The translations under genes and the position numbers were made by a program. 64,000 nt of DNA from Eledone cirrhosa (Eukaryota), in the NCBI GenBank assembly GCA_964016885.1, contig OZ024756.1, forward strand, positions 19,902,001 to 19,966,000. Direction: 5' to 3'. Numbering within the stretch: position 1 is the stretch's first letter; every line of letters starts with the position of its first letter. Below the pieces are notes generated by a model that was given only the letters and a program-made list of their open reading frames with translations, made no database searches and was not told where the DNA came from. Positions 41,592-42,207 of the stretch are shown here, one piece after another.

Positions 41592-41753
41592 TGTATATAT
41601 ACATATATATATATACACATACTTATATATATACATATATACACACATACATATATATAAATATATATATACACACATATACATACACACACACATATAT
41701 ATATATATATACAATATATTAACAAATGGAAACTATATTTATAAAACCATATT

Positions 41754-41819
41754 TATTTTATTATACATATTTCAAGGGCCACCAAGGCAAATTATGGTGC
41801 GCTTTCATCAGATAAAATA
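41754..41819 (-). ncRNA. Mirror hammerhead in the left arm of palindrome 41707-42075
   Basis: Reverse complement of 41963-42028. Confidence 0.72.
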
Positions 41820-41962
41820 CAATACAGATTAGTTTTATAAATAAATATTGACATACCCTGAAAAAAGACAACCTTAACGGTTGGAGCTTCTTGACTATTC
41901 AACCGTTAAGGTTTCTTTTTTCAGGGTATATCAATATTTATTTATAAAACTAATCTGTATTG

Positions 41963-42028
41963 TATTTTATCTGATGAAAGCGCACCATAATTTGCCTTGG
42001 TGGCCCTTGAAATATGTATAATAAAATA
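41963..42028 (+). ncRNA. Type-I hammerhead ribozyme
   Basis: Stem I TATTTTAT/ATAAAATA; CTGATGA 41971-41977; imperfect stem II (aagcgcacca...tggtggccctt); GAAA-T-ATGT-A-TA. Predicted cleavage after A42020. Confidence 0.75.
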
Positions 42029-42159
42029 AATATGGTTTTATAAATATAGTTTCCATTTGTTAATATATTGTATATTTACTCCACTCTACTGTTGAGTGCT
42101 TTATATCAGTTATAAAAATGTTTAAGCTTGTTGAATCCCAACAAATTAAATATAACCTC

Positions 42160-42207
<48 letters not shown>

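Follow-up and report, generated by a model that had tools for sequence, protein, structure and literature searches.

Complex insertions of EN+ Penelope-like elements (PLEs) are known from PMC3846280 and PMC8557442, whose passages on insertion structure describe a head-to-head inverted and truncated copy, a tail at one end only, a palindrome or short spacer between the copies, and an AT-rich or microsatellite target; both report a bias towards (TA)n or microsatellites for Naiad and Neptune. In the second of these sources the one-sided tail measures 30-40 bp, and Naiads are devoid of canonical hammerheads in the parts that deal with them. Opposed minimal hammerheads lying 100-700 bp apart are considered in PMC4209133 to derive probably from truncated PLEs; in the portions of that work concerned, such motifs showed no activity as monomers and little as tandem dimers. 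As for Poseidon, the relevant sections of PMC11167929 report that its protein cleaves AT-rich DNA on both strands and extends both in vitro, that two internal RT start sites bound the tail, and that ribozyme cleavage is dispensable for insertion. Moreover, the giant squid data excerpted from PMC6962438 list Penelope and 235 hammerhead loci.

The locus considered here occupies positions 41707-42162 of a window of 64,000 nt from Eledone cirrhosa, "the window" being the whole stretch of DNA that was analysed. We interpret it as a severely 5'-truncated, dead-on-arrival insertion of a hammerhead-bearing EN+ PLE targeting (TA)n, with a probability of roughly 0.85. The anatomy that carries this interpretation comprises an asymmetric build, two fixed outer ends lying 87 nt apart on the template, and an inner junction that differs between copies. 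The combination of an inverted copy and a one-sided tail is already described for PLEs; what the locus and the window add is a tail longer than published, a tail-start motif found in several families, and a coverage of about 3.5% of the window by fold-backs.

Compared with the complex insertions of EN+ PLEs in PMC3846280 and PMC8557442, as far as these describe them, the locus has the same organization but a tail of 87 nt instead of 30-40 nt, with no remaining ORF or parent in the window. The metazoan PLE hammerheads presented in the parts of PMC4209133 concerned share with it the core motifs, a long helix II, a short self-complementary helix III, the opposed pairs and a variable stem II, whereas their stem I is of 4-5 bp; here it is of 8 bp, the first stem II pair is A-U, there is no unpaired base after A9, and a C-C mismatch is kept. 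The Poseidon element PAc of Anolis (PMC11167929, sections on its insertion) has the same two template end points round the tail, an AT-rich target and an AC-rich stem-loop resembling our tail-start hairpin; its tail length differs and its ORF starts within the hammerhead, while no matching ORF start was found at this family in the window. Naiads, according to the passages of PMC8557442 on them, share the (TA)n targeting, the inverted copy and the tail, and are found in Octopus spp.; the canonical hammerhead that they lack is present in this family, which points away from a Naiad as its source. Our literature search retrieved no paper on this family, which may be catalogued in Repbase or Dfam, outside that search.

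Structure of the locus and of its relatives

The window consists of microsatellite-rich animal DNA. The last exons of a gene for cytoplasmic dynein 2 heavy chain lie at 9250-15930 (+), among them one at 15146-15380 that was identified by its similarity (E 7e-28); a motif places the C-terminus of the product presumably near 15900-15930. A single-exon ORF of 351 codons at 52256-53308 (-) belongs to a rhodopsin-family receptor (Pfam, E 1.6e-10). Since the dynein 2 gene ends near 15930 and the receptor lies at 52256-53308, the element appears to be intergenic. An open frame of 186 codons at 35176-35736 (+), which to the eye resembles an OTU-like domain, had no Pfam match, and a U6-like Rfam match at 50291-50383 (+), with 40.2 bits versus a gathering score of 44, is probably a pseudogene. 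A SINE-like repeat, some 190 nt long, is abundant and occurs at 33269-33456, 39264-39454, 55651-55838 and elsewhere; two of its copies, 22 kb apart and in opposite orientation, are 99.5% identical.

The initial annotation had described the locus as (TA)n, inverted arm, forward arm with ribozyme, a tail of about 85 bp, and (TA)n. The alignment agrees with this layout, with a tail of 87 nt (Table 1).

Table 1. Features of the 41707-42162 fold-back, of its relatives and of associated motifs (positions in the window).
Feature	Position	Strand	Basis or remark
Inverted arm without tail, read as an inverted truncated pLTR (element 3' end)	41707..41883	-	(TA)n abuts outer end; arm alignment
Spacer, 16 nt	41884..41899	.	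Between the arms
Forward arm	41900..42075	+	Arm alignment and family reads
Tail, 87 nt, one-sided	42076..42162	+	Short hairpin at its start, with a motif common to other families
(TA)n target repeat, tailed side	42163..42205	.	41707 is likewise preceded by a TA-rich repeat
Minimal type I hammerhead motif, inverted arm	41754..41819	-	Core starts at 41811
Minimal type I hammerhead motif, forward arm	41963..42028	+	Core starts at 41971; predicted from sequence
Forward hammerhead, stem I	41963-41970/42021-42028	+	8 bp
Forward hammerhead, core boxes	41971-41977 and 42009-42012	+	
Forward hammerhead, stem II	41978-42008	+	Long
Forward hammerhead, helix III	42012-42019	+	8 nt, self-complementary; predicted cut after 42020 (UA site)
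Single arm, same family	18576..18726	-	84% identical; core 18678; tail-less end at (TA)n
Diverged arm	25949..26052	+	73.5% identical; core 25960, with stem II shortened; (TA)n abuts tail-less end
Inverted arm start (50 nt), about 10 nt, and tail	59605..59756	+	Between (TA)n runs
Related family, same build	31206..31640	+	Identical arms of 169 nt; 2-nt spacer; cores +31446 and -31305
Sites of the 10-letter motif	24193, 31570, 31752, 33463, 33581, 41165, 42090, 59000, 59680		Tails of families otherwise not alignable
Decayed GIY-YIG remnant, Neptune-type	25039..25179	+	tblastn E 3e-11; contiguous with no copy

In the pairwise alignment, the two arms (177 and 176 nt) share 175 identities, with one mismatch and one gap. 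The left and right ends of the element differ, as the inverted repeat stops 87 nt before the right end, and the tail has a folding z-score of -2.9. The arms depart from each other by an indel at 41913 and a substitution at 41930. According to the family reads, the forward arm has the minority state at both positions (the base of the inverted arm at 41930 accounts for 99.9% of the depth in sequencing run X1, and the extra base at 41913 for 72%); hence, the two arms probably did not differ when the element inserted.

The single-arm copy and the related ribozyme that the annotation had placed at 18580-18730 and 25950 were both recovered (Table 1). The former may extend to about 18765, where a repeat led by CAT repeats follows, and no tail was found at it; close to the latter there is a possible reversed tail at about 25830-25890, a weak match whose score is reached by 8 of 500 shuffles. 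In the third partial copy, annotated at 59612-59756 as internally deleted, an arm start (59605-59654, 90% identical) is indeed joined to a tail (59664-59743, 81% identical; tail score reached by 0/500 shuffles), but the deletion is one reading only, and the copy may have been inserted directly in its arm-plus-tail form. The tail of the related family at 31206-31640 is homologous to that at 42076-42162 (0/500 shuffles), and the ribozyme is also common to both. When the tail was locally aligned with 12 segments, the match was significant in two (59612 and 31545), marginal in two (25830 and 41120) and absent in eight. No direct tandem copy of the arm occurs anywhere in the window, the copies being either opposed or single.

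Hammerhead motifs

A strict hammerhead descriptor matched eight times in the window and not once in each of 100 block-wise dinucleotide shuffles. The motifs of the two arms sit on opposite strands, with 160 nt between their cores. No hammerhead was retrieved from Rfam among the 14 matches at E<=10 over the locus, nor among the best 150 of 247 matches listed for the whole window; the best matches at the locus were miRNA models below threshold. Pattern scans of metagenome and viral contigs gave no match in 4/4 scans.

As the annotation had stated, stem II differs between copies and stays largely paired; both copies have C opposite C at position 4, and that at 41971 also has one bulge. By eye, the 41971 and 18678 copies have both sides changed at three of nine pairs with pairing kept. 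Likewise, the changes in stem I are G-U wobbles, and 32/32 cells are paired. Among the 40 of 103 read variants listed for run X1, A>G at 42023 (42% of depth) and 42024 (16%) give further G-U pairs, and G>A at 42016 (47%) turns helix III into a perfect palindrome. The broader claim of a conserved structure stands as regards the pairing kept in the copies, but not as regards covariation, whose count is no higher than in shuffles (358/500, four window rows); this formal count scored one double-changed pair, as the gap placement by MAFFT hid two more that are visible by eye. Moreover, the single-ribozyme folds were no better than those of shuffles in 5/5 cases (z from -0.4 to -1.4), and stem II opens with an A-U pair in the copies whose cores start at 41971, 18678 and 31446, in place of G10.1-C11.1 with an unpaired base after A9.

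In the predicted fold of the whole-element RNA there are 175 arm-arm pairs and stem I has a probability of 0; for an RNA made of forward arm and tail, the predicted probability of stem I in the catalytic register is 0.03, and the helix III self-duplex is predicted to be worth only -2.2 kcal/mol. RNA of either strand would thus contain one sense motif masked inside a 175-bp hairpin, so that cleavage seems unlikely. The term "double hammerhead", used in the annotation, is correct in that each arm has a motif; nevertheless, since the sense motif of each transcript would pair with the antisense copy, the arrangement of opposed motifs is better regarded as a by-product of the inversion than as a dimeric ribozyme. 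We regard the ribozyme motif as a passenger carried along with the pLTR.

Family reads and lopsided fold-backs

Four sequencing runs (X9, together with X1, X5 and X8 out of eight in which the sequence was detected) were mapped on 41884-42164, with depths that give no copy number. No RNA run with the sequence was listed among 11 runs, a result that carries no weight as to expression. In total, 7,004 contigs of X1 and 30,037 of 12.5 million reads of X9 were placed, and the family is high-copy; X5 and X8 yielded 12 contigs and one contig, respectively, too thin a basis to claim the family in other species. In X1, (TA)n follows straight behind the arm end at 42061, 42066 and 42075 in 7, 64 and 70 contigs (loose ends); in X9, it follows 42061 and 42066 in 5220 and 1313 reads, and in X5 it follows 42075 in one contig. 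In other copies the read depth carries on through the tail. This implies two fixed 3' ends. No ORF was found among the 13 loose ends listed, out of 353, each of at most 30 letters.

Strand switches account for nine of the 15 joints listed (out of 20), seven of them within the arm or the arm-to-tail region and two at the arm end; each is backed by one to four read starts in one RAD library and could also reflect a chimera or an alignment limit. In three read joints, a position inside the arm is followed at once by the tail region at 42090. The annotation had proposed that the inversion breakpoint varies with each insertion; this agrees with the inner junction, in so far as it differs between the copies at 41707 and 59612 and among the read joints, but not with the outer ends, which are fixed. 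At the 5' side of the arm, the summed X1 depth falls about 100-fold, from 498,604 (41924-33) to 4,782 (41904-13), a gradient confounded by divergence, and four joints cluster at 41914-41919. The depth of X9 was not used for abundance, as its reads pile up in stem II of one subfamily, at an apparent restriction site.

The lopsided build recurs in the window. Thirty complex segments bounded by (TA)n were considered, and ten of them were flagged as self-complementary. In seven of the ten, a fold-back reaches one edge to within 0-3 nt, and 34-172 nt stay unpaired at the opposite edge; none of the 30 has arms at both edges. The three flagged segments set aside are 18581 (a weak internal match), 40775 (a microsatellite span) and 32659 (one side flush, with a 444-nt remainder). 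The spacer measures 0-16 nt in 9/9 tailed fold-backs, two of which are perfect palindromes. Overall, 11 fold-backs account for 2,254 nt, about 3.5% of the window, a figure that leaves out three of 14 regions (17710, 35802 and 52109) with short or simple-repeat matches. Apart from 41707, their arms are 73-100% identical and they have the same one-sided tail.

Lopsided fold-backs of other families lie in or beside (TA)n at 24152-24331, 24618-24745, 25500-25812, 30123-30499, 30694-31191, 41032-41200 and 58954-59150, and some of them have partial or degenerate hammerhead cores. One family has two opposed tails round a central (TA)n at 33445-33690 and a fold-back with tail at 58954-59150. Single hammerhead motifs occur in (TA)n-bounded segments at +32518 (32425-32639) and -40857 (40775-40950); by eye, the 32425 segment looks like an arm plus a reversed tail, related to the 25500 fold-back.

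A 10-letter motif, often with a short hairpin, marks the start of the tails (Table 1). It occurs nine times versus 3.3 expected (1/100 shuffles); this test is not independent, as the motif was derived from the same sites and eight of the nine occurrences are the aligned tail-start segments.

Origin and mode of insertion

To judge from the sequence, PLEs are present in this genome. The region 25039-25179 has GIY-YIG relatives, whose own longer relatives combine RT and endonuclease in 577-887 aa with a cysteine linker, that is, the Neptune layout. However, when 34 Neptune-like proteins were compared with the window by tblastn (protein P0001 being left out owing to a repetitive false match), no match fell in or beside any copy or fold-back arm; the same search gave a weak match at 10807-11073 (E 0.019). 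The segments 10636-11070 (-), to which this weak match belongs, and 57200-57620 (+) resemble, by eye, pieces of a Naiad RT thumb and GIY-YIG domain; Pfam returned no significant match for the PLE-like fragments picked in this way. The species-named relatives of a local retroelement fragment were only Crassostrea and Argonauta. The Neptune clade shares pLTR hammerheads and a microsatellite bias with this family (PMC4209133 and PMC8557442, in the parts concerned), while no sequence link ties the family to the remnant ORF; we infer that the arm is a pLTR and that the clade is probably Neptune-like.

The PLE-type reading put forward in the annotation is borne out by the build, in which an inverted tail-less copy, a forward copy and a one-sided tail correspond to the structures presented in the relevant parts of PMC8557442, PMC3846280 and PMC4209133, but not by a PLE ORF, none of which was found at any copy within the window. 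Further points against it are the length of the tail, an A-U first stem II pair that departs from the consensus given in PMC4209133, the lack of a hammerhead among the Rfam matches listed, and the non-significant covariation. Furthermore, the fall in depth between 41924 and 41904 could mean a discrete unit: a short PLE derivative that is non-autonomous, has a 5' end of its own near 41915-41925 and is moved in trans. Such derivatives are described in the portion of PMC8557442 concerned, and the clustered joints and the lack of ORFs near the copies would agree with one; against this, the 18580 copy goes on upstream, diverged but colinear, and the drop may be an edge effect or may arise because diverged subfamilies fail the 80% cut-off. 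We consider this origin rather unlikely. As for explanations outside PLEs, a non-LTR retrozyme giving circular RNA via dimeric hammerheads would likewise have a type I hammerhead whose helix III is self-complementary, and would code for nothing; known retrozymes, as presented in the relevant part of bioRxiv 10.64898/2026.07.22.740005, are direct tandem repeats with a ribozyme per unit, whereas here the motifs are opposed and the window contains no direct tandem copy, which makes this origin highly improbable. The long inverted repeat, the fixed outer ends, the TA context and the high copy number would also suit a MITE or a fold-back DNA transposon that duplicates a TA target. Nonetheless, the tailed end has no terminal repeat, the ends being unlike, none of the 30 (TA)n-bounded segments is symmetric, the inner junction differs between copies and the arms bear a hammerhead motif. 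Fixed TIR ends, which the annotation had named as the mark of a MITE, are thus missing at the tailed end; the MITE was set aside, and we leave it only a very slight chance. A false palindrome produced by assembly or library preparation is hardly credible: the depth over the spacer is zero in 4/4 runs mapped, so that the reads do not independently confirm the exact junction, but the arms differ at two positions, the same one-sided tail accompanies the other fold-backs of the window, and, of the words sampled from 41707-42900, a fraction of 0.89 is present in run X1 and likewise in X2.

Within the PLE reading, the two arms may have been generated by priming from two starts, to which we give an about even chance. 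The GIY-YIG endonuclease would nick both strands of the TA tract, and the RT would start cDNA at two fixed sites of the element RNA, the first immediately ahead of the tail and the second where the tail ends. A tail-less cDNA would be primed on one strand and a tailed cDNA on the other, both would stop early, and the truncated ends would be joined head to head, giving inverted arm, forward arm and tail. A short second cDNA would give inverted arm plus tail and would explain the 59612 copy without a deletion; the near-equal arm lengths suggest that the same broken RNA may have been copied twice. The spacer leans slightly in this direction, since 41884-41899 gives the higher alignment score when it is read on from the inverted arm (28 versus 15, in one diverged comparison with no control). 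The short spacers of the tailed fold-backs, however, fit more simply with self-priming than with two independent cDNAs: a single cDNA would fold back, copy itself and be cut at the tail boundary. This mechanism is proposed from such palindromes in PMC3846280, which in the passages concerned also reports microhomology deletions, and it would treat arm-plus-tail copies such as 59612 as later deletions of unstable palindromes. The need for these deletions, the orientation of the spacer and the three read joints that tie the arm interior straight to the tail region tell against it, and we view self-priming as a tenable but tentative account, short of even odds.

The value of the locus is modest, as it is one of many natural records of PLE integration, with two fixed ends and a movable junction. 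Tallied genome-wide, such copies could separate two-start priming from self-priming, a point left by PMC3846280 and PMC11167929 in the parts cited here. Moreover, such hairpins mimic MITEs and microRNA precursors. According to the relevant passages of PMC5625713, Octopus has an unusually abundant potential for near-perfect dsRNA, hence hyper-editing; there, a palindromic repeat explains the frog case and none is named for octopus. It is conceivable, though we hold it to be doubtful, that multi-family PLE fold-backs are a main source of this potential and hence of hyper-editing in Octopus, and that the tail-start hairpin and motif are conserved as the signal at which the RT binds or initiates in a PLE lineage with long tails and (TA)n targets. 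If transcribed in a cephalopod, these fold-backs would be ready substrates for RNA editing.
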